From NCBI GenBank assembly GCA_963702095.1, contig OY969706.1, forward strand, positions 2,752,001-2,816,000: a DNA stretch of 64,000 nt, read 5' to 3'. A model generated the notes under the pieces. That model was not told where the DNA came from, searched no databases, and saw only the letters and a list, made by a program, of their open reading frames with translations. Position 1 is the stretch's first letter. The number at the start of each line of letters is the position of its first letter. Below, piece after piece: positions 4,071 to 61,014 of the stretch. Source of the stretch: Candidatus Bathyarchaeota archaeon. Lineage in GTDB: Archaea; Thermoproteota; Bathyarchaeia; Bathyarchaeales; Bathycorpusculaceae. The translations under genes were made by a program, and so were the position numbers.

Positions 4071-4226
4071 CTTTGGTTCTGCTTGTGGTTTGCGCCTCAA
4101 TCAACCTGCAACCCATCTCTGTTGCAGAACGCAAAACACAGCCGTTCACCAAGCCCCTAAGAAGATGATGAGCAAGGGCGGCACTCTCTTCTTCTAATAT
4201 AGAAAAAACAAAAAAGCCCAAATTTG
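4071..4226 (-). repeat. Dispersed intergenic repeat family A, copy 1
   Basis: The reverse complement carries the core TTAGAAGAAGAGAGTG..GCCCTT.CTCATC.TCTTC...GGCTTGGTG...GGTTG.TTGAGG...CCACAAGCAG shared with four other loci. Confidence 0.85.
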
Positions 4227-8721: not shown

Positions 8722-10081
8722 TGAAGTTACCTACTACGAAACCCATCGGGGGCATACCTTTACCGCCGCCCAACCCGAAAGGCAGCTTCTTTTTACGTTT
8801 AAACATCTTTAACATCTTTTTCATCACGAGGTACTGTTTGAGGAGTTCCTTGACTTCTTTCTCGGTGGTACCTGAACCGTGGGCAATGCGTTTTGCACGG
8901 GAACGGTTGAGTATTTTGGGGTTCTCTTTTTCTTGGGGCGTCATGGATTGAATTATAACCTGCCAAGTGTCGAGGCGGCCTTCAGCGCTGTTAAGCATGT
9001 CGTCGGGGATGTTTGAAGATGACATCCCAGGAATCATCTTCATAACTTTGCTAAATGGACCCATGTTTTTGACTGCAGCGAACTGCTCATACATGTCGGT
9101 TAAGGTGAAGTTGCCGCTTAGGATTTCTTTGGCTTTTTTCTGGGGCACTTTGATTTCTGCGTCATGTACCTTCTCGAGCAGCGTCTCCAAATCGCCCATT
9201 CCTAAAAGGCGCCCGACGAAGCGGCTGGGAACAAAGGCTTCGATGTCCTCAACTTTTTCGCCTGTGCCTATGAATTTTATTGGCGCACCTGTGGCTGCGA
9301 CTGCGGAGAGAGCGCCGCCTCCACGACTGGAGCCGTCTAGTTTGGTGACGATGATGGCGCCGATGGGAGTGGCTTCATGGAATGTTTTGGCCTGTGCCAA
9401 CGCCTGCTGCCCGATGGTGCCATCGATAACCATGATGATTTCGTCGGGGTGAACGCCCTTCTCTATGTCCTTCATCTCTTTGATGAGGTCTTTCTCTTCC
9501 TTATGGCGACCAGCTGTGTCGACGATTAATAGGTCGCGGTCCTGGAACTGTTTGAAGCCTTCTTTAGCGACTTTAACAGGGTCTTTGGCTTTAGCGTCGC
9601 CGTAAATTGGAACGTTTATTCTGGTTGATAGCTGCTGGAGTTGGGCGTAGGCGCCTGGACGGTAAGTGTCGGCGGCGATTAACCCTACTTTTATGCCTCG
9701 CTTCTGGAAGTACCGTGCGAGTTTGGCGGCGTGGGTGGTTTTGCCTGAGCCTTGAATGCCAACTAGCATGATGGTTTTCTTTTTGCCCGGCTCAACTTTG
9801 AGGGGGACGGGTTTGTCGCCGACGAAACGTGTTAGTTCTTCGTAGACGACTTTTACGACGTGTTCGCGTCTTGATATTCCAGGTGGCACTTTTTCTTTTA
9901 GGGCGCGTTCTTCGATGTTCTTTGAGATTTGGAGGACAAGCTGGACGTTGACGTCGGATTGCAGCAGTGCACGTTGAATGTCGCGGACCAGTTCTTTCAC
10001 TGCCGCTTCGTCCACTACGCCTGCTTTGAACAGCTTCTTTATGGCGTCGGTTAGTGAAGAACCTAACTTGTCTAGTGCCAT
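8684..10081 (-). CDS. srp54: Signal recognition particle protein SRP54
   Basis: GIQGSGKTT, DTAGRH and TKLDG GTPase motifs; Met-rich M domain with RIAHGSG. Confidence 0.97.
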   Translation of the reverse strand: MALDKLGSSLTDAIKKLFKAGVVDEAAVKELVRDIQRALLQSDVNVQLVLQISKNIEERALKEKVPPGISRREHVVKVVYEELTRFVGDKPVPLKVEPGKKKTIMLVGIQGSGKTTHAAKLARYFQKRGIKVGLIAADTYRPGAYAQLQQLSTRINVPIYGDAKAKDPVKVAKEGFKQFQDRDLLIVDTAGRHKEEKDLIKEMKDIEKGVHPDEIIMVIDGTIGQQALAQAKTFHEATPIGAIIVTKLDGSSRGGGALSAVAATGAPIKFIGTGEKVEDIEAFVPSRFVGRLLGMGDLETLLEKVHDAEIKVPQKKAKEILSGNFTLTDMYEQFAAVKNMGPFSKVMKMIPGMSSSNIPDDMLNSAEGRLDTWQVIIQSMTPQEKENPKILNRSRAKRIAHGSGTTEKEVKELLKQYLVMKKMLKMFKRKKKLPFGLGGGKGMPPMGFVVGNFNGCFRESRRIAQ

Positions 10082-21873: not shown

Positions 21874-22707
21874 GTGAAGGATAAGGTTAAGCTTGCACTT
21901 TGCCAAATAAGCAGCAGACGAGAAAACAAGGAGGCTAACCTCCAAAAAATCGAGGAGTTAACCGCCAAAGCTAAAGGGGAGGGAGCGGAATTGGCGATTT
22001 TCCCAGAGATGTCACTGACAGGCTATGTTCTCCATGACCAAGTGTACGGTTGTGCCGAGACCGTGCCTGGACCATCAACCCAGAAAGTGGTTGAGATTGC
22101 CCAGAAAAACGGTATGCACATCATTTTTGGGATGCCTGAGCTTAGCGAAAAAACCCAAGCCACCATCTACAACACCGCCGTCATGGTGGGTCCCAAAGGC
22201 TACATCGGTAAATACCGCAAAATGTACCTTCCCACGCACAGCGTGTTTGAGGAGAAGCGTTATTTCCGTCCTGGATACGAGCCAGGGGCGTTCCAAACCG
22301 ACATCGGTAACATCGGGTTAACTATCTGCTATGATGTTTTCTTTCCAGAAGTGTTTAGGCTTTGCCGATTGAAGGGTGCGCAACTCATGGTTTGTATTTC
22401 TGCTTCCCCAGCGGTGCGTCGAAGCTACTTTGAGTTGCTAACTGCCGCGCGTGCATTGGAGAACACGGCATATTTAGCCTACGTTAACCTCGCAGGCGTG
22501 CAGGATGGCTTGCAATTTTGGGGCGGAAGCCGCCTCGTCAGCCCCACAGGCGACGTTTTAGCTAAAGCAAAGTATGATTTGGAGGATTTTGTGGTCGCCG
22601 AGGTCGATTTGGCTGATTTGCGTACCGCCGAAACCTTTGTTCCGACGATAAGGGATCTTCGCCCAGAGCTTTATGATAAGCTTAAGCGGTATTCCGAGCA
22701 AATTTAA
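21874..22707 (+). CDS. Carbon-nitrogen hydrolase (nitrilase superfamily)
   Basis: E-K-C triad in FPEM, YRKMYL and ICYD. Confidence 0.92.
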   Translation: MKDKVKLALCQISSRRENKEANLQKIEELTAKAKGEGAELAIFPEMSLTGYVLHDQVYGCAETVPGPSTQKVVEIAQKNGMHIIFGMPELSEKTQATIYNTAVMVGPKGYIGKYRKMYLPTHSVFEEKRYFRPGYEPGAFQTDIGNIGLTICYDVFFPEVFRLCRLKGAQLMVCISASPAVRRSYFELLTAARALENTAYLAYVNLAGVQDGLQFWGGSRLVSPTGDVLAKAKYDLEDFVVAEVDLADLRTAETFVPTIRDLRPELYDKLKRYSEQI

Positions 22708-22740
22708 GCAGGTCACATATAAGCGAAATGCTCGGGAGAA

Positions 22741-22840
22741 CACATCACAGATGCATCACAAAGCTGTGATATCAAGTGATTTCGGGCTAAATCACAGCTT
22801 TTTGGTGATGTCACGGTGATTTTTTGGTTAAATCACGTTG
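22741..22840. repeat. GTGAT/ATCAC motif cluster 1 (putative iterated protein-binding sites)
   Basis: Eight GTGAT/ATCAC in about 95 bp (22744, 22755, 22766, 22776, 22791, 22805, 22816, 22832), including the near-palindrome GTGATGTCAC. Confidence 0.75.
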
Positions 22841-23186
22841 AGATTAGCAGGAGGATAATGTATTTTGGTGTTAGATTTGGGCTGAAAAAGTGTGTGTTAT
22901 TTCGCTGGGAATGTAAAAAAATGGGCGGGAGAGGGTTTGAGGTGTTTGCAGAAGTGCGTTTTTTGTGTAAAGTTGAGGCATGTGGATGGTTGAAATTACC
23001 GAGGAATTTAGCCTTTTTCATGTTAAATGGTCTAAAACTATCCTTAAATCGTCGGGCAAGGTATTAATCGGCATATTTTTGTGAATTAGGGCAAATTTAG
23101 CCGTTTTTTTTATCGATATAGCGGGTTTTGTGGGGGTGAAAGGATAAAAACAGGGGTTAGTATACAAAACTGTATCCATTTGGACT

Positions 23187-23684
23187 ATGGAGGAAAACAG
23201 TGGTTTGAAGCTAAAAGACGGGGTAACAGCATGGTTAAATGGGGCACTAAATGACCCCATCGTACAAATACTGGCTAAAAACAGCCAATTAACAAAAACA
23301 CAGCTAGAAACGCTACTCATTGACGTTTTATCTGAAAATATATCGGGGAAACAGCTAAAATACGACGATAAAGCCGCATTAAGGCTAACAAAGGCTAAAA
23401 TAAGTCGCGGTAGCTTTAATAGGACTTTAAAACAGTCCCGCGAAAACGTCATTAAGTCCATCTACACAGTGCTACTTTTAGGGTATTTGGGAGTTTTTGA
23501 GACAACAACTCTCGACCCGTACCTCGAAATAGCCAATAAACTGCACGAGTACGTCGATGCACACCAGGACGTTCCTATCAAGGAAGAGGAACTAAAAGAC
23601 CATCGAAAAGTCATAGAAATCATCAGAAATGAGCTTGAAACGAGCCTAAAACGGCTTTCTAGCCCATCAGAAGCCCCCCTGTGA
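23187..23684 (+). CDS. Uncharacterised HTH-like protein (165 aa)
   Basis: SQLTKTQLETLL...KISRGSFNRTLKQSRENV resembles a helix-turn-helix followed by a helical bundle. Confidence 0.7.
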   Translation: MEENSGLKLKDGVTAWLNGALNDPIVQILAKNSQLTKTQLETLLIDVLSENISGKQLKYDDKAALRLTKAKISRGSFNRTLKQSRENVIKSIYTVLLLGYLGVFETTTLDPYLEIANKLHEYVDAHQDVPIKEEELKDHRKVIEIIRNELETSLKRLSSPSEAPL

Positions 23685-24000
23685 TGTCACAAATCACAGG
23701 TTTATCCATCTTTTTATGTATAAATTGAAGGAAAAAATAACCGTTCCTACAGGGCTATATTCAAGGGCTAATTTCCTAAACAGGCTCAAATTTCAATCTT
23801 TTCAACCTATGGATAGGCCATTAAGAGAGCCAACTATAAAGTTGTGATCTGTGATGTCATTCTTGCATGTGATCAGGTCACCGATAACCTTAAATTTCCA
23901 TGGGAATTAGTGTGATGTGTGATGCAACCGTTAAAATCACGGGGAATCACGGTTGAGTCACACATAAATCACGGGGGAAGAAATCACGGTTGACCTCACA
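23681..24000. repeat. GTGAT/ATCAC motif cluster 2
   Basis: Eleven GTGAT/ATCAC (23681, 23693, 23844, 23851, 23869, 23912, 23919, 23936, 23946, 23968, 23983), a second GTGATGTCAC, and a tandem AAATCACGGGG..AATCACGGTTGA unit. Confidence 0.75.
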
Positions 24001-24009
24001 CCATTAATA

Positions 24010-24777
24010 TTGGCTGTTTTAGTAGCTGTTACAGCGGTAGCTGCCTATGAATACTACAAGCATATTCGAATGGCACACAAAGAATACGAGAAAGCCAAAG
24101 ATTTTCTAGAAGATATCGTGTTGAGTTTTGATCGAGAACTTAAACGTGAATCAAACAAGTTTGACACTATGGTATCAAAGGTAGAGGGAAGCCACAACAC
24201 AGCTGATGTCAGCTACAGAAAAGCTGAGCGATTAGAACTCAAAATCGAGCCAATGGAGGAGCAGCTTGGCGCCCTCACTCAATCATACCAGGCGATGTCA
24301 CAGACAGTCACAGAGGAACTAACAGAAAACACGCAAAACAACACAAGAGTCCTCTCAGGGCTCCAAGGCTTAGAAGCAAAACTCAAAGACATCGACGTGG
24401 CGCAGGAAACTCTCAAGAACAAAATCTCAGGCCTTGAAGAGCAAATCCAGAAGATAGCCACTGCCCCGCCGCCTCAACCAGAATTCAGAACAGAAGTTGT
24501 GTTGCCGCCTATACCCATCAAACGGGACAAAGCCCTAGCCGCCCTCACAGAAACCGAAATCCAAGTGCTTGAAATGCTCTCAAAAGAGGGCTCTAAGACT
24601 GCACCTGAAATAAAAGAGAGAGTACACCTAAGCCGGGAGCACACTGCACGGTTGATGAAGAAGCTCTATGAAAATGGGTATCTCGAGAGGGAGGCAGGCA
24701 AAATTCCCTTCCGCTACAGCATAAAGAAGGAAATGGAAGCACTGCTACAGAAAGTAGAGAATCCACCAGCAACATAG
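24010..24777 (+). CDS. Predicted membrane-anchored coiled-coil protein with C-terminal MarR-like winged helix
   Basis: Hydrophobic N-terminus, about 130 aa heptad-rich region, Pro-rich linker, then LTETEIQVLEML..TAPEIKERVHLSREHTARLMKKLYENGYLER. Confidence 0.8.
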   Translation: MAVLVAVTAVAAYEYYKHIRMAHKEYEKAKDFLEDIVLSFDRELKRESNKFDTMVSKVEGSHNTADVSYRKAERLELKIEPMEEQLGALTQSYQAMSQTVTEELTENTQNNTRVLSGLQGLEAKLKDIDVAQETLKNKISGLEEQIQKIATAPPPQPEFRTEVVLPPIPIKRDKALAALTETEIQVLEMLSKEGSKTAPEIKERVHLSREHTARLMKKLYENGYLEREAGKIPFRYSIKKEMEALLQKVENPPAT

Positions 24778-24822
24778 CGTGAACTAGGTAGGCGTGGTTT
24801 CCCACGTTAAAGGTACCCCTTC

Positions 24823-24970
24823 TACTTGTAAAATCAGCCTCAACCAGCCTACAGCCCGTTTCCGTTACAGAACACAAAACACAGCCGCCCACCAAGCCCA
24901 TAGGAAGAAGATGAGTAAGGGCAACACTCTCTTCTTCTAACACTAGAAAAACAAAAAAGCCCAAATTTTG
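24823..24970 (-). repeat. Dispersed intergenic repeat family A, copy 3
   Basis: Its reverse complement is identical to copy 4 over about 83 nt. Confidence 0.9.
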
Positions 24971-25005
24971 ATCTACACGGGGGAGGGAGGCAGTAAAAGA
25001 AAAGC

Positions 25006-25977
25006 TTAGACAACCAAGTCCGCCATGTCGACGCTGCGCTCATAGATCTGCCTAAGAAAAGACACTGCCGCCAAGAATTCAGGCATCAAATCCACCGAGG
25101 ACTCCTTAGCTGCCGACTCAATCTTTGTAGAGGTATCAAGAATTTTTGTCCTTAGATTCCGCACGTTTTCTGCTAGCGAGATGTCTTTGGATAGGAATGA
25201 TTTGAAGGCTTGATCGTTGGCTTCACAGCAGGCAGATTGCAACTCGGTTAGGAGCTTGCGGATTTCCTCGGAGAGTTTAGCATCGTTTAGTTCCAGCGTG
25301 TTCTGAGCCAGTTGCACACATGCGTCGCCTATGCCTTCGATCAGACTTGCGGCTAAACGGTAGTCAAGGCATTCGATAGGTGTTATGGACAGTTTTTCGC
25401 TTAGCCTTGGATTCTGGATGATGGTTCGAAGTATCCTGACAAGTAAAAAGTAGAATTTGTTGTTTTCAACGTCGCGTTCGATTACGTTTTTAGCTAAGTC
25501 GGTGTCGACGGTGATGAATGAGTTGGCGGCGTCGCGTATCATGCGGGCTGCGCTTGCGTTGTTGCGCTGCAAGATTTTACTTGGGGAAGTAAAGGGCTGC
25601 TGCATCATGCATTGCAGAGACATCATGGAGGTGGTTTCTTCAACAATCATCAAGCCGGCCAATGAGTTAGCTGTGGATTTAACTAGGTTGCGAACGTTGG
25701 AGTCGATGCGGTCTTTGGCTTCTACCCTTATGATGTCGTATCCGAGCAGGTAGCGACCGATGATTTCGCGGCTCAAGTAGGGACCGATGCTTAGAACGGC
25801 GACTTTAGGCTGTACTTCATTGTCGAATTGGGGGTCGATAAAGAGTTTTCCGTCGCTTGTAACTTCTAAATTAACCTGGGTGCCTTTCTGGAGCCCATGC
25901 CCTTTAGCCCAGTCACGTGGCAAGCATACAAAGAAGGTGCCTGTTGGCGTCTGCTGGATTTTTCGTAGTTCACTCAT
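25006..25977 (-). CDS. AbrB-PhoU phosphate uptake regulator family protein
   Basis: RKIQQTPTGTFFVCLPRDWA AbrB domain, YLLGYDII, and two PhoU-like helical repeats (IEGIGD, IYERSVDMADL). Confidence 0.88.
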   Translation of the reverse strand: MSELRKIQQTPTGTFFVCLPRDWAKGHGLQKGTQVNLEVTSDGKLFIDPQFDNEVQPKVAVLSIGPYLSREIIGRYLLGYDIIRVEAKDRIDSNVRNLVKSTANSLAGLMIVEETTSMMSLQCMMQQPFTSPSKILQRNNASAARMIRDAANSFITVDTDLAKNVIERDVENNKFYFLLVRILRTIIQNPRLSEKLSITPIECLDYRLAASLIEGIGDACVQLAQNTLELNDAKLSEEIRKLLTELQSACCEANDQAFKSFLSKDISLAENVRNLRTKILDTSTKIESAAKESSVDLMPEFLAAVSFLRQIYERSVDMADLVV

Positions 25978-26201
25978 TGAATTGCCACCGAGATATGATT
26001 CATCTAAACATTTCAGGGCTTATATAAATTACTTCCAAACGGTTTTGTTTTAATGGCAGATAATACAATCAAGCCGCAACCGTAAAGAAAAAACATCACC
26101 GCACTTGCAAGCGCAAATGAAAAACAGTAAATAACTCAAAAGCAATAATGGCTAAACATCAAGCCAGCACCAACCATGGATAAAAGAGGGGTGGAAACGC
26201 G

Positions 26202-27800
26202 ATGGGTGAAGAGGAACAACTGCAAAGAGCAATCGAAGCAACAATCGCTGCAGGTTACCAGTTAAACAGCGAAGCCTTCGAGTTCCTCATCCAAAACTCT
26301 CAAACCAACGACCCCATGGCAGTAATGAATTTGGTGCTAGAGCGGATGGCTAATCTGGCGGATAAGCCGATGTTTATCGAGCGCAGTTTCTTAGAAACAG
26401 TGGTTCAGCAAGCAGCTATGGCTGTTGCAGAAGTTGTTTATGAGCAGCCTCCCGCGCAGGCGCCCACAGTTCAGCTGTACCCAAGCTACCCCGAGCCAAC
26501 GGCGAAGCCACAGATCAACGCTGCAGATTCGTTCTATCCCTATGCCAAAGACATCGCCTCTGACCTCAAAATCCTCGACGACTCCACCGGCAATCTAACC
26601 TCCAACGGCACCCTCAACGAATATATGGGGCTTTTTCAGGACCGATTTAAACGGGTCGAGAAAATATTGCGCCAAAGAATGGATGTTAAAGCAGCCACCC
26701 CTATAGTGGAAGCCCTCAAATCGCAGCCTAAAACCAAACTAAAAATCATCTGCATGCTAACTGAGAAGCGGGACTCCAAGAACAATATGATCCTCTCTGT
26801 GGAAGACCTTCATGGAAGCGCAACCGTGCTTATCCCTCAGAAGGCACCTGAAGAAGTAAAAAGGAAAGCGCTCATGCTATTGCCGGATACAGTGTTCTGT
26901 GCAGCCGTCATTAAAACCCGAACCAACCTCTTGATGGCAGAAGACATTATTCTTCCAGAAGTAGGCAAAAAAATACCCCAGCGGGCGCAGGAGCCAGTGT
27001 ACGCTGTACTTACCTCAGACACACATATTGGCAGCACAAAATTTACCAAAGAAGCCTTCCGCCGCTTTATCCTTTGGCTCCGAGGCAAATACGGCACGCC
27101 TGAGATGCGGGAAATTGCGGGCCGAGTCAAATACCTGCTTATCGCAGGCGATATAGTTGACGGCATCGGAATTTACCCCGGGCAACAGAACGAAATCACC
27201 ATACGCGATATCCACAAACAATACAATTTTGCCATTAAGTATCTCGAGAAAATTCCCAGTTATATCGAAATCGTGCTCTCGCCCGGCAACCATGACGCCG
27301 CACGCAAATCACTGCCTCAGCCAGCCATACCCGAAGGCTACCTGTCGGCAATCAAAGACAAACCCAATATCCACAGCGTCGGCAGCCCCTGCCTACTCAG
27401 CATCCATGGGGTAGAAGTCCTCATGTACCATGGCCGCAGCTTAGACGACATTATCTCCGTCATCCCAGGCATGGATCATGAGCACCCCGATAAATCAATG
27501 CGGCTTCTCTTGCAGAGCCGGCACTTGGCACCGGTATATGGTGGAAAAACAATGCTTTCCCCAGAGAACCGGGATTACCTAGTCATCGACAGAGTTCCCG
27601 ACATATTCCATGCGGGACACGTACACGTCAACGGCTTGTGCAACTATCGTGGTGTGTTGGTTGTTAATTCGGGCGGTTGGCAGGAACAGACGGATTACAT
27701 GGAAAAGTTGGGGTTGGTCCCCACTCCCGGAAAGGTGCCGGTTGTGAACCTACAAACTATGGAGACCACGATTTTAGATTTTATTAATCCGTTATTCTGA
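26202..27800 (+). CDS. polB: DNA polymerase D small subunit DP1 (proofreading exonuclease)
   Basis: SDTHIGS, AGDIVDGIGIYPGQ, PGNHD, YHGRS and GHVH phosphoesterase motifs. Confidence 0.97.
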   Translation: MGEEEQLQRAIEATIAAGYQLNSEAFEFLIQNSQTNDPMAVMNLVLERMANLADKPMFIERSFLETVVQQAAMAVAEVVYEQPPAQAPTVQLYPSYPEPTAKPQINAADSFYPYAKDIASDLKILDDSTGNLTSNGTLNEYMGLFQDRFKRVEKILRQRMDVKAATPIVEALKSQPKTKLKIICMLTEKRDSKNNMILSVEDLHGSATVLIPQKAPEEVKRKALMLLPDTVFCAAVIKTRTNLLMAEDIILPEVGKKIPQRAQEPVYAVLTSDTHIGSTKFTKEAFRRFILWLRGKYGTPEMREIAGRVKYLLIAGDIVDGIGIYPGQQNEITIRDIHKQYNFAIKYLEKIPSYIEIVLSPGNHDAARKSLPQPAIPEGYLSAIKDKPNIHSVGSPCLLSIHGVEVLMYHGRSLDDIISVIPGMDHEHPDKSMRLLLQSRHLAPVYGGKTMLSPENRDYLVIDRVPDIFHAGHVHVNGLCNYRGVLVVNSGGWQEQTDYMEKLGLVPTPGKVPVVNLQTMETTILDFINPLF

Positions 27801-29024
27801 GTTTTTACGGGTGTTTTTTGGCTCGTACTGGAGTAGTGGGCTAAAGCGGACGTCGCCGCCAAAGACATCGCGAATTAAGCCTCGGCTGATTTCTAAACGT
27901 ATCTTCTTGGTTCTGCCGTACCTGCCCATGCTCACGACTTTGGCGTTGACCAAACCCATCGAATCCAACTCGTTAACCAAGGTGCCCAGTCGCCGCTGAG
28001 TTAGCAATCCAGCGCCCATTTCACCGCATAACTCATTGTAGACATCGTAGATTTCGCCTGTACTCGCGCTTGGCTTATTGAGGTGGTAGACGCTTAGCAG
28101 TACCAATTTTGAGTGCAGGGTTAAGTTTTTGAGGGCTTCTACGACACGGTTGTGCTCGATGTGTTTTTCAGCTTGTCGCACATGTTCCTCTGTGATGGTT
28201 TTTGCTCCTTGCCGCTCCGCAACTTCGCCTGCAACACGCAACAGGTCCAGGGCACGTCTGGCGTCCCCGTGTTCGGCGGCTGCAAGCGCAGAGGAAATGC
28301 TAAGAGCTGAATCAGAGAGAACGCCGTCTTGGAACGCCAGTTTGGAGCGTTCAAGCAATATGTTACGGAGTTCTTCTGCGTCGTAGGGTCTAAACACGAG
28401 TTCTTCTTCGCTAAGTGAACTAAAGACTCTGGGGTCGAGGAATTCTTTGAGGCGTAAGTCGTTGGATATGCCGATGATGGAGACTTTGCTTTTGTGGAGG
28501 GTTTCGTTGATGCGGGTGAGTTCGTACATGAAGGCGTCGCCTTTGTCCTTGATTAGGGCGTCGACTTCGTCTAGGACGATGATAAAAATTATTCTTGACT
28601 GGTCTAGCCCTGATCGGAAGCGGTCAAAAACTTCACCTACCGACAACCCAGTAAAGGGTATGGATAAGCCTACGCTTTGGCTTAAACTGGCAAAGACACG
28701 GTACTCCGAGCCAGTCATTCGGCAGTTGATATAGCAGAATTTGACTTGGGCACCGTACTCTTTAGCCTTTGATTCCAAGTGGCTCAAAACATATTTTGCG
28801 ACCGCGGTTTTTCCTGTGCCGGTTTTGCCGTAGATGAAAATGTTGGAGCATCGGGCGTCTCTTAGAACAGGCGCTACAGTTGAGCCTAAAAGACGAATCT
28901 GGTCTTCTCTATGTGGAAGCTTCTCTGGAATATAGTCATGTCGAAGAACCTCTCGGTCTTTGAACAGTTTTATACCGTGAACGAAGTTGTCGAATACGTC
29001 GTCGAGTACACTTGAATTTCCCAT
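27792..29024 (-). CDS. cdc6: Orc1/Cdc6 replication initiator
   Basis: LPHREDQI, Walker A GKTGTGKT, LDEVD, GDARRALDLL and C-terminal GRYGRT wHTH. Start MGNSS at 29024. Confidence 0.97.
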   Translation of the reverse strand: MGNSSVLDDVFDNFVHGIKLFKDREVLRHDYIPEKLPHREDQIRLLGSTVAPVLRDARCSNIFIYGKTGTGKTAVAKYVLSHLESKAKEYGAQVKFCYINCRMTGSEYRVFASLSQSVGLSIPFTGLSVGEVFDRFRSGLDQSRIIFIIVLDEVDALIKDKGDAFMYELTRINETLHKSKVSIIGISNDLRLKEFLDPRVFSSLSEEELVFRPYDAEELRNILLERSKLAFQDGVLSDSALSISSALAAAEHGDARRALDLLRVAGEVAERQGAKTITEEHVRQAEKHIEHNRVVEALKNLTLHSKLVLLSVYHLNKPSASTGEIYDVYNELCGEMGAGLLTQRRLGTLVNELDSMGLVNAKVVSMGRYGRTKKIRLEISRGLIRDVFGGDVRFSPLLQYEPKNTRKNSE

Positions 29025-29170
29025 TTGCCCACCCTCGCCTTTCAGAGGTACAACCGTTATTTCGTGTGGAACAGATAAAGGATACAGTACAAAAAACTGG
29101 TTCAAGAACACAATATTCCTAAAAAAGCTGAGGAAAAAGCTGTAGCAGCTAAGTAAACATAGTAGAGCAC

Positions 29171-29628
29171 ACACCCCAAGGTTTCGACTGGAAAAAAAGT
29201 CACTAAATTATAAATTCATATTAATAATATATAATAAAATATACTCTGAGTGATAAATAGGCTTTTTATATATTAATTATTATCATCAAAGAAATTAGAC
29301 ATTTCTTCTGCAAATATTTTTTCAGCCTCTCTAGACTTCTTTTCTGCCAAAAAATCGTCGACTGGAAACATAGGGGTGTCTCTTCATCGATAAATCCATG
29401 GAAATCAATATAAAATCACTGCTTAACCGCTATCTTGGCTTATGGCCAAACTAACTTTAACTTGAACAATTTTGTCACCAAAGTTATCGGTAACTTCACA
29501 TTCACAAAACTGTGAACACATGTGAAATAGCATTAAATCTGCCGCTTTATCTAAGCGGTTTTTCGCTGAATTACCCTAATTCTGTTCTACTACAGAGAAT
29601 AAGGCACCCCTTGACTTCTACTGGAAAA
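29171..29628. other. Replication origin (oriC): ORB elements and AT-rich DNA-unwinding element
   Basis: ORB-like boxes on the minus strand at 29171-29194 (TTCCAGTCGAAACCTTGGGGT), plus strand at 29357-29379 (GTCGACTGGAAACATAGGGGTG) and minus strand at 29605-29628 (TTCCAGTAGAAGTCAAGGGGTG). The first two flank a very AT-rich stretch at 29200-29340. Directly upstream of cdc6. Confidence 0.88.
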
Positions 29629-29801
29629 TCCAAACTAAGCCATACAGACTGGGCTTTTACGGTGTCGTTTCCTTGTGAAGCTGGTTATTCCATAAACAAT
29701 CCAGAAAAAAACTATTTAGCTATTATACGCCTAAATTAGCCTTTTTTTATTGCCATGTTTCACCATCACAGTTATAAGTTGTGAAGTGTAAAGATTGTGA
29801 A
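29495..29801. repeat. TGTGAA/TTCAC motif cluster upstream of the 142-aa wHTH gene
   Basis: Motifs at 29495, 29501, 29511, 29521, 29674, 29759, 29780 and 29796. Two more lie just downstream of the gene (30273, 30292). Confidence 0.6.
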
Positions 29802-29820
29802 CAACCTATAGGTGCACTGA

Positions 29821-30249
29821 TTGCCGGCTCGTAAAATACGCGTAGAGCTCTTCGATAGCGATGGGAATCGATACACTATCGCTTTTGAGGGTCAAGTGAC
29901 CCGTGACAAAGCTCTGCGACTGCTTGACCTCGTCGAATTGCTAGGCGGTGCGCCAAGCGAAGGCCCAACAGTTAACAGCGGTCCAGCAATGCCTAACCGT
30001 GCACTGTCCCGTTTTGAGAAGGTGCAGTTGGTTATTCAGAAAAATTTTCCGTTAATCTGGTTTTCATCGAAGGAGGTCCAATCAGTCTATGAGCAGGAAC
30101 TCAAAGAACCCGTCAGTTTGAGTACAATCTCAACCTATCTCTCACGTATGGCCGGCAAAGGCTTGCTGCTTAGGACCGGTAGTTCAAACAGCCTCAAGTA
30201 CAAGACAGCGCCAAACATTCCACAGGCAATAAAGCAACACATAAAGTAA
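29821..30249 (+). CDS. oriC-adjacent uncharacterised winged-helix protein (142 aa)
   Basis: Small N-terminal beta-beta-alpha domain, linker, then WFSSKEVQSVYE..VSLSTISTYLSRM..KGLLLRTG wHTH. SD-like GGTG before TTG. Confidence 0.8.
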   Translation: MPARKIRVELFDSDGNRYTIAFEGQVTRDKALRLLDLVELLGGAPSEGPTVNSGPAMPNRALSRFEKVQLVIQKNFPLIWFSSKEVQSVYEQELKEPVSLSTISTYLSRMAGKGLLLRTGSSNSLKYKTAPNIPQAIKQHIK

Positions 30250-30310
30250 CTTTATAACTGCTTCCCAAGCGATTCACAGAAAAGCTGGTATTGTGAACTG
30301 TAGCATTTTC

Positions 30311-30460
30311 GTTTTCTTTTTTTCTAGTGTTAGAAGAAGAGAGTGTTGCCCTTACTCATCTTCTTCCTATGGGCTTGGTGGGCGGCTGTGTTTTGTGTTC
30401 TACACTAGAAAGGGGTTGCTGGCTGGTTGAGGAGCAAACCACAAGCAGAACCAAAAAACC
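30311..30460 (+). repeat. Dispersed intergenic repeat family A, copy 4
   Basis: TTTTTCTAGTGTTAGAAGAAGAGAGTGTTGCCCTTACTCATCTTCTTCC...GGCTGGTTGAGG..CAAACCACAAGCAGAACC. Confidence 0.9.
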
Positions 30461-60810: not shown

Positions 60811-60945
60811 TTTTGTTTTTTTAATATTAAGAAGAAGAGAAGATGCCCCTTACTCATCATCTACCCGCGGGCTTGGCAGGCAACTGTTTTTTTGCGTCAG
60901 CGTTTGAGATGCATTGCAGGCTGGTTGAGGCGATTCCACAAGCAG
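60811..60945 (+). repeat. Dispersed intergenic repeat family A, copy 5
   Basis: TTTTTT..TTAAGAAGAAGAGA..CCCTTACTCATCATCT..GGGCTTGG..TTGCAGGCTGGTTGAGGCGATTCCACAAGCAG. Confidence 0.82.
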
Positions 60946-61014
60946 ATAGCGGGTTAGGCGTATTCACACCAAAAAATATAACTACTGTGACATTAAATGT
61001 AATCCCGGTAACAT

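Follow-up and report, generated by a model that had tools for sequence, protein, structure and literature searches.

Three gene families and the GTGAY arrays beside the origin

The DNA analysed here, termed the window, covered 64,000 bp (bases 2,752,001-2,816,000) of the single-contig genome (2,937,366 bp) of a Candidatus Bathyarchaeota archaeon; positions given below are those of the window unless marked as genome positions. Between 21 and 31 kb the genes were arranged in the order NAD synthase, CN-hydrolase, P1, P2, PhoU/AbrB-like, DP1, Orc1/Cdc6, spacer, P3 and phosphoribosyltransferase. This work deals with P1, P2 and P3, with the iterated short motifs that accompany them, and with the replication origin (oriC) in the spacer beside cdc6. 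P1 (165 amino acids; 23187-23684, plus strand) was an all-helical protein of an unnamed family, P2 (255 amino acids; 24010-24777, plus strand) consisted of a hydrophobic N-terminus, a coiled coil, a Pro-rich linker and a C-terminal winged helix-turn-helix (wHTH), and in P3 (142 amino acids; 29821-30249, plus strand) a beta-hairpin and a helix at the N-terminus were joined by a disordered linker to a wHTH at the C-terminus. No account of these genes or of the arrays was found in literature searches, which did not cover supplementary files. For comparison, 60 loci were read in all: 20 fetched from the same order (10 of the same genus and 10 of other genera), 20 from distant Bathyarchaeia (class level), and 20 holding P2 relatives at the phylum level, including 10 ammonia-oxidiser (Nitrososphaeria) loci.

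Twenty-four GTGAY/RTCAC sites lay within 22700-24020, grouped in three clusters that bracketed the P1 gene. Cluster A (22712-22836), just past the CN-hydrolase gene and around 350-470 bp upstream of P1, had 10 sites in mixed orientation, mostly at 10-16 bp steps, and was conserved in relatives of the same genus and of some others. The three sites of cluster B (23681-23697), two of them forming a palindrome and the third beside it (GTGAT-GTCAC-N2-ATCAC), overlapped the stop codon of P1; this composite pattern occurred once in the genome and was conserved class-wide wherever P2 was present. Cluster C (23844-23987), with 11 sites extending to the P2 start, contains by eye the P2 promoter. A GTGAT-N2-GTGAT pair and two more sites were located upstream of its TATA-like box (23888-23897), a second pair followed about 25 bp past the box, and then came five RTCAC sites at 10-15 bp steps. 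Iterated sites were thus found on both sides of the TATA-like box of the gene for P2, itself the candidate binder.

The first-pass annotation had proposed an unusual density of such motifs in this region, and this was borne out, since the densities of GTGAT and of the TGTGAA motif described below were unmatched elsewhere in the genome. GTGAT occurred genome-wide at 1.33 copies per kb, and the only 200-bp windows with at least six copies in 2,937,366 bp were one at 22744 with 8 copies and one at 23844 with 9; the next-best one anywhere in the genome had five. Paired or palindromic GTGAT sites elsewhere were isolated copies. Two isolated GTGATGTCAC palindromes (genome 573,117 and 2,907,470) shared about 40 bp of similar flanks, which points to a further small family of repeats with no relation to the arrays.

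In each of the 20 order-level relatives the P1-P2 spacer held 4-13 GTGAT copies, arranged alike about the TATA-like box: the palindrome and third site at the P1 stop codon, one pair before the box and another about 25 bp past it, and a run of RTCAC at steps of around 11 bp up to P2. Site spacing, computed over 397 sites in 21 loci, peaked at 5, 7 and 10-11 bp; orientation was opposite in 42 of 48 cases at 5 bp, and the same in 60 of 63 at 7 bp and in 71 of 83 at 10-11 bp. The array site consensus was YGTGAYnT.

The wHTH of P2 (residues 179-238) was of the MarR/TrmB type and scored above the Pfam cut-offs for both families (PF01047, MarR, 33.4 bits vs. 24.6; PF01978, TrmB, 31.1 vs. 25.6). The best NCBIfam model was Lrs14 (NF040939), at 29 bits, below its equivalog cut-off of 90; no MerR match was obtained in Pfam or NCBIfam, and the DNA-binding domain was C-terminal. 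The middle of the protein was a long helical coiled coil of about 130 residues with weak matches to SMC/Rad50 coiled coils. The recognition helix, SREHTARLMKKLY, was invariant in 20 orthologues and near-identical in ammonia oxidisers, whose P1-P2 spacers also carried GTGAT arrays. P2 is predicted from its N-terminus to reside in the membrane: the maximum hydrophobicity over 19 residues of this end ranged from 2.15 to 3.19 in 10/10 ammonia-oxidiser proteins, and a hydrophobic N-terminus was also present in most Bathyarchaeia, where it is followed by YY(K/R)RIR. Two variants of the architecture were seen among the phylum-level relatives. In L156, L157, L164 and L165 (other Thermoproteota) an anchor-less P2 retained the coiled coil and the wHTH, and in L158-L160 P2 had the anchor and the wHTH but almost no coiled coil, with P1 overlapping P2 as an operon.

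The presence of the arrays followed that of P2. When GTGAY was counted in the 700 bp after P1 in the class-level loci, 6-16 copies were found in 12/12 loci with P2, whereas the eight loci without P2 gave 0, 0, 1, 1, 1, 1, 3 and 9. A P2 profile search of the whole genomes of these eight loci, which represent six families, returned nothing credible; P1 was nevertheless present in all eight and P3 in seven. This co-occurrence indicated that the arrays go with P2, and not with P1 or P3.

P1, P3 and the origin spacer

P1 could not be related to any named family. No Pfam, NCBIfam or PDB sequence match was obtained with it, nor did ten distant relatives of about 130 residues give a named family. The family comprised 318 clusters at 50% identity, and 36 columns were invariant in 20 orthologues. 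A possible helix-turn-helix at about residues 60-95 was seen by eye only. The AlphaFold2 model, built from a 20-row alignment, was too poor for a fold search (predicted local distance difference test, pLDDT, 53.7), and the only lead was an ESM Atlas match (0.79) to a Hadarchaeota cluster with Sigma70_r4 in 14% of its members. In the P1 promoter region (23142-23177, plus strand), an A/T-rich box resembling TATA was recognised by eye (23142-23151), followed by a palindromic operator candidate of 18 bp, GTATACAAAACTGTATCC, at 23160-23177, 10 bp before the P1 ATG. The palindrome (pattern TATACA-N4-TGTAT) was unique in the genome even when 3 mismatches were allowed, and the core ATACA-N4-TGTAT was conserved upstream of P1 in order-level, class-level and ammonia-oxidiser loci. 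Paired with the gene by position only, it would be the private site of P1. Another motif, AATTTAGCCnTTTT (A(A/T)TTAGCCnTTTT), had three of its six genomic copies in this locus, two upstream of P1 (23006 and 23095) and one upstream of P3 (29734).

The spacer between cdc6 and P3 was 650 bp long and AT-rich. Its core (29172-29628), next to cdc6, contained three boxes resembling the origin recognition box (ORB), namely ORB1 (29172-29195), the inverted ORB2 (around 29355-29380) and ORB3 (29605-29628), together with an AT-rich unwinding stretch (around 29200-29290) that lay between two ORB-like boxes in inverted arrangement. The boxes and the AT-rich stretch were kept in 17/17 order-level loci that reach cdc6. 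Judged by this anatomy, the spacer is an archaeal oriC. The cumulative GC skew reached its maximum at 26,444, which marks the switch in strand bias, a property distinct from firing. In the detrended curve the extremes (genome 2,778,444 and 838,001) coincided with the two Orc1/Cdc6 genes of this genome, the second of which (genome 835,602-836,705) was 1.3 kb from the skew minimum; the arcs between the extremes were unequal (about 1.94 and 1.00 Mb). In Nitrosopumilus maritimus one origin only has been mapped, as cited in PMC4010727.

Seven TGTGAA/TTCACA copies were found in 350 bp (29495-29801), the maximum elsewhere in the genome over the same length being four; the looser 5-mer GTGAA was not enriched at the locus. 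Four copies were placed between ORB2 and ORB3 (29495-29526), one at 29674, and two, 16 bp apart, just past the TATA-like box of P3 (29771-29778). Both placements, at the P3 TATA-like box and between ORB2 and ORB3, recurred in every order-level locus reaching cdc6, and no copy was present in the two class-level origins without P3. The first-pass annotation had placed one short core next to each of the three genes, and set the arrays around oriC. Clusters did occur near each gene; the motifs differed, however, with GTGAY at P2, TGTGAA at P3 and a distinct palindrome at P1. Likewise, it was the TGTGAA sites that lay in the origin spacer, whereas the GTGAT arrays surrounded P1 and P2, and the origin spacer of relatives held only 0-4 GTGAT.

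By position, the TGTGAA sites may belong to P3, although this assignment is weaker than hoped because ammonia-oxidiser P3 has the same recognition helix and yet the origin spacer there is rich in GTTAAC instead of TGTGAA. In the cdc6-P3 spacers of the ten ammonia-oxidiser loci (L146-L155), GTTAAC reached 2-6 copies per approximately 450-650 bp vs. 0-0.08 per kb elsewhere in the locus, and its copies were interleaved with the ORB-like boxes. The P3 model had a pLDDT of 71, and its best PDB folds were RosR, the Fur DNA-binding domain and MecI, none of them at E ≤ 0.001. P3 was also below the BlaI/MecI cut-offs (PF03965, 19 bits vs. 22.6; TIGR02698, 12.5 vs. 122), and its likeness to wHTH proteins therefore appears generic, outside BlaI/MecI/CopY by cut-off.

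Conservation and rearrangement of the block

P1, P2 and P3 were single-copy genes present in 13, 12 and 13, respectively, of 16 sampled genera of the order. All 20 order-level loci displayed, as far as their contigs reached, the order NAD synthase, CN-hydrolase, P1, P2, a gap of 0 to 2.6 kb, P3 on the opposite strand, oriC, Cdc6, DP1 and PhoU. Many relatives had an optional insert past P3 and on the same strand, made up of an unknown protein of about 335 amino acids and a HerA-like (DUF87) ATPase (L013:5479-8014; L022:4799-7331), so that P3 headed an operon with the ATPase; the locus of the present genome was without both genes, and the HerA-like ATPase was not found anywhere in this genome. 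Across Bathyarchaeia, the P1 profile matched 126 of 151 genomes (97 of the 107 high-quality ones), and at the class level Cdc6 or DP1 was within 9 kb of P1 in 19/20 loci, while P2 was present in 12/20 and P3 in 14/20. At the phylum level the P2 profile matched 114/201 genomes, including every member (28/28) of one family. We take this family to be ammonia oxidisers because archaeal AmoA was found in the three members tested. P1, P2 and P3 stood in the same order in 10/10 ammonia-oxidiser loci, with Cdc6 next in all eight that were not ended by a contig edge, and DP1 seen in seven.

Conservation of the block therefore spans at least two classes, and its extension to ammonia-oxidising Nitrososphaeria is newly shown here. 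The linkage to cdc6/oriC that the first-pass annotation had suggested was found in 20/20 order-level loci, in most class-level loci and in 10/10 Nitrososphaeria loci. Its view of the three proteins as parts of one system did not hold, as each gene had a private motif and the genes were lost independently (P2 absent from 8/20 and P3 from 6/20 class-level loci). From private motifs and independent loss we infer that the trio consists of separately wired binders and does not form an obligate machine.

The neighbouring genes between P2 and the origin were a PhoU-domain protein with an AbrB/MazE-like N-terminus (25006-25977, minus strand), which is a member of the conserved block, the small subunit of PolD, DP1 (26202-27800, plus strand), and the initiator Orc1/Cdc6, assigned by domain match (27792-29174, minus strand). 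The DP1 gene, with DNA_pol_E_B plus Metallophos domains, had previously been called polB, a name that has to be corrected. The listed Orc1/Cdc6 open reading frame (ORF; 460 amino acids) is probably around 45 codons too long at its start; in most relatives the alignment began no earlier than residue 43-50, and stop codons or a different frame preceded it. As already stated in the first-pass annotation, no ParA/SegA ATPase was encoded in the window: no match to PF13614 (AAA_31) or PF01656 (CbiA) exceeded the cut-off, the one sub-threshold CbiA match being at 9458-9751. Several ParA-type ATPase genes were present elsewhere in the genome, outside the window. No relevant Rfam match was obtained over 20-33 kb, and no tRNA genes were found in the window.

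The arrangement of this genome departed from that of its relatives. A segment of 5.4 kb (24957-30312), containing PhoU, DP1, cdc6, oriC and P3, was inverted here, given that the uninverted order occurred in 20/20 relatives. In the alignment with the closest relative, 22000-24956 ran one way and 26201-30367 the other. The segment was bounded on the left by a copy of a 139-nt dispersed repeat (24820-24958) and on the right by an inverted copy (30312-30450), and both junction copies matched the single partial repeat copy of the closest relative. The inversion reflects either recombination between the repeats or an assembly error; three wetland-metagenome contig sets yielded short pieces of relatives only, none of which spanned the inversion junctions. 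As a consequence of the inversion, the distance between the arrays and the ORB boxes rose from around 1.5-2 kb to 5.2 kb. The inverted repeat was considered as a locus-specific element and rejected, since it belongs to a genome-wide family with 87 copies at E ≤ 1e-10 (64 of them of at least 100 nt, at 72-91% identity), including further copies in the window at 4094-4215 and 60811-60946. No Rfam match was found for it, and it looks like a family of the miniature inverted-repeat transposable element (MITE) or repetitive extragenic palindromic (REP) kind.

Possible roles of the arrays

We consider, with a probability of around one half, that the arrays may serve as a docking platform for membrane-anchored P2, which would combine autorepression with the holding of origin-flanking DNA at the membrane. 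P2 would have a short N-terminus outside, one transmembrane helix, and a cytoplasmic part made of the coiled coil, the Pro-rich linker and the winged helix. Multimers formed through the coiled coil would fill the approximately 24 short sites at 5-, 7- and 10-11-bp steps. Since the clusters bracket P1 and straddle the TATA box of P2, P2 would repress its own expression and probably that of P1 too; as P2 would be fixed in the membrane, its binding would also pin the DNA there, at 1.5-2 kb from oriC in the ancestral order and at 5.2 kb here after the inversion. P1 would be a separate, self-regulated binder with one private palindrome, and P3 a third binder, with TGTGAA sites both at the P3 promoter and interspersed with the ORB boxes. 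The binding of P2 to the arrays, its location in the membrane, the repression, and any part played in positioning the origin, in segregation or in the control of replication are what we infer from the sequence evidence given above.

Several observations weigh against docking at the membrane. The pairing of P2 with the GTGAY arrays derives from position and phyletic co-occurrence, and the P2-less locus G089, from a genome 86% complete, kept nine GTGAY after P1, upstream of an XRE-type gene. Four of the 20 phylum-level P2 relatives (those named above) were without the hydrophobic segment, and one of these, L156, still had GTGAT sites upstream; the anchor is therefore not essential to the pairing of P2 with arrays. 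In the present genome (G000), P2 read from the listed TTG start had only about 16 hydrophobic residues, with a 15-residue hydrophobicity of 1.65; since the open frame continues for another 14 codons upstream, it is not certain that translation begins at this codon. The arrays sit outside the ORB-bearing spacer. P2 was lost in loci of six sampled families, and any role in chromosome handling would therefore be dispensable there. A complex prediction with a P2 dimer (residues 22-255) and P1 scored 0.00, which is uninformative either way.

Several of the same points would fit plain gene regulation, according to which P2 is a membrane-bound autorepressor, perhaps released or inactivated by a membrane signal, the arrays are no more than its operators at the P1 and P2 promoters, and closeness to oriC is inherited gene order, without a part in organising the chromosome. 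Ordinary autorepression alone explains sites that straddle the TATA-like box, and here they lie on and around the box and occupy the leader as far as the start codon; moreover, each of the three genes appears to have a private operator, and certain lineages have P1 and P2 as overlapping genes of one operon, preceded by both motifs. The anchor-less relatives, L156 with its upstream GTGAT among them, and the repeated loss of P2 are equally in line with regulation. Conversely, a regulator of this kind would have no evident output, its only dense target in 2.9 Mb being its own locus, and around 24 sites in three clusters over 1.3 kb far exceed the requirements of a promoter. Virtually nothing of P2 is predicted to lie outside the cell that could sense a signal, and the oriC-side position was kept over two classes despite changing flanking genes. 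Regulation alone is thus a realistic possibility, although we regard it as somewhat unlikely.

A broader proposal, which we find rather doubtful, extends docking by P2 to the whole block. The block would then be an origin-attachment apparatus predating the split between Bathyarchaeia and Nitrososphaeria, in which P2 would act as a site-specific integral-membrane tether for origin-flanking DNA, P3 would tune the action of Orc1/Cdc6 through its sites interleaved with the ORB boxes, and P1 would be a third factor of the circuit, with no place assigned to it as yet. In terms of the classical replicon model, the P2 tether would then be the attachment site in physical form, and origins would be positioned or segregated independently of ParA.

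It seems quite improbable that the arrays are bound instead by P1, by P1 together with P2, or by an Orc1/Cdc6 paralogue, and form an extended origin or a secondary zone of initiator loading. Clusters A and B bracket P1, which is the most conserved of the three genes and is co-oriented with, and sometimes overlaps, P2; a second Orc1/Cdc6 gene exists in the genome as well. Nevertheless, seven of the eight loci with P1 and without P2 had 0-3 sites, and six of those seven carried Cdc6; furthermore, P1 has another, palindromic private site, and the ORB box sequence is unrelated to GTGAY. A mobile or defence island, or an integrated iteron plasmid, next to the origin can practically be dismissed, for although G+C is lower over 23-24 kb (0.40), the arrays resemble iterons and dispersed repeats flank part of the region, the phyletic pattern contradicts it, the genes being single-copy and vertically conserved in 126/151 Bathyarchaeia genomes and in ammonia oxidisers, no integrase or replication-protein domain was detected in ten scanned ORFs (21.0-31.2 kb), and the flanking repeat, with 87 copies across the genome, is a dispersed family and does not mark the end of an element.

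For P2 as a membrane-anchored binder of its own arrays, the closest models are bacterial. RacA has origin-proximal ram sites. RicO and RocS have an N-terminal MerR-like helix-turn-helix and a C-terminal amphipathic helix, and RicO binds nine 18-bp sites spread over around 700 kb (bioRxiv 10.64898/2026.03.06.710092). RicO, RocS and RacA offer a model for P2 in that a site-specific DNA-binding domain, a coiled coil and a membrane or pole end are combined with origin-proximal sites and no need for ParA. P2 is, however, an archaeal protein unrelated in sequence to these Firmicutes proteins, and its domain order is reversed, with the predicted transmembrane helix N-terminal and the MarR/Lrs14 wHTH C-terminal. 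In contrast to those of RicO, the approximately 24 short candidate sites of P2 are packed in 1.3 kb on its own locus, with only isolated copies elsewhere.

The operator-centromeres of plasmids provide a second parallel. In ParR/parC of R1 and in TubR/tubC, TubR being a winged-helix protein, iterated sites around the own promoter are bound cooperatively, and autorepression is combined with a structural role. The P2 array similarly flanks the promoter of its own gene, as placed by eye. Unlike these systems, P2 has no neighbouring ParM, TubZ or ParA motor and would have a membrane anchor instead; unlike plasmid centromeres, it is encoded on the chromosome, at a locus kept across classes. SegAB of Sulfolobus and ParABS include a site-specific binder with sites beside its own chromosomal gene, and the candidate sites of P2 are likewise beside its own chromosomal gene. 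In this case, though, there was no SegA/ParA ATPase beside P2 or above the cut-off in the window, and no relationship of P2 to ParB or SegB was found by any search run. Although the C-terminal domain of P2 passes the MarR and TrmB cut-offs, P2 differs from MarR, TrmB and Lrs14 regulators in the fusion to a coiled coil and a transmembrane helix and in its short arrayed sites, which replace a single dyad. P2 thus belongs neither to the RicO/RocS/RacA anchors nor to the operator-centromeres, and these are its nearest working parallels.

For the TGTGAA sites that lie between ORB2 and ORB3, the best parallel is UBP at Sulfolobus oriC1, a non-initiator protein that binds the short ucm element between ORB boxes, a beta-rich saddle of 111 amino acids with hundreds of sites and encoded away from the origin (PMC12141716). 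P3 differs from it as a wHTH protein encoded beside the origin with dense sites only there, and P1 differs as an all-helical protein.

The locus bears on origin positioning and segregation in archaea that lack SegAB and ParABS, and on what besides Orc1/Cdc6 acts at archaeal origins. It provides a candidate set of three unnamed protein families with unique, easily mutated motifs and a fixed position at the side of the origin, and the idea is directly testable in ammonia oxidisers, which are cultured. Even if P1, P2 and P3 did nothing but regulate themselves, the presence of three deeply conserved, self-dedicated regulators beside the origin would still need explaining.

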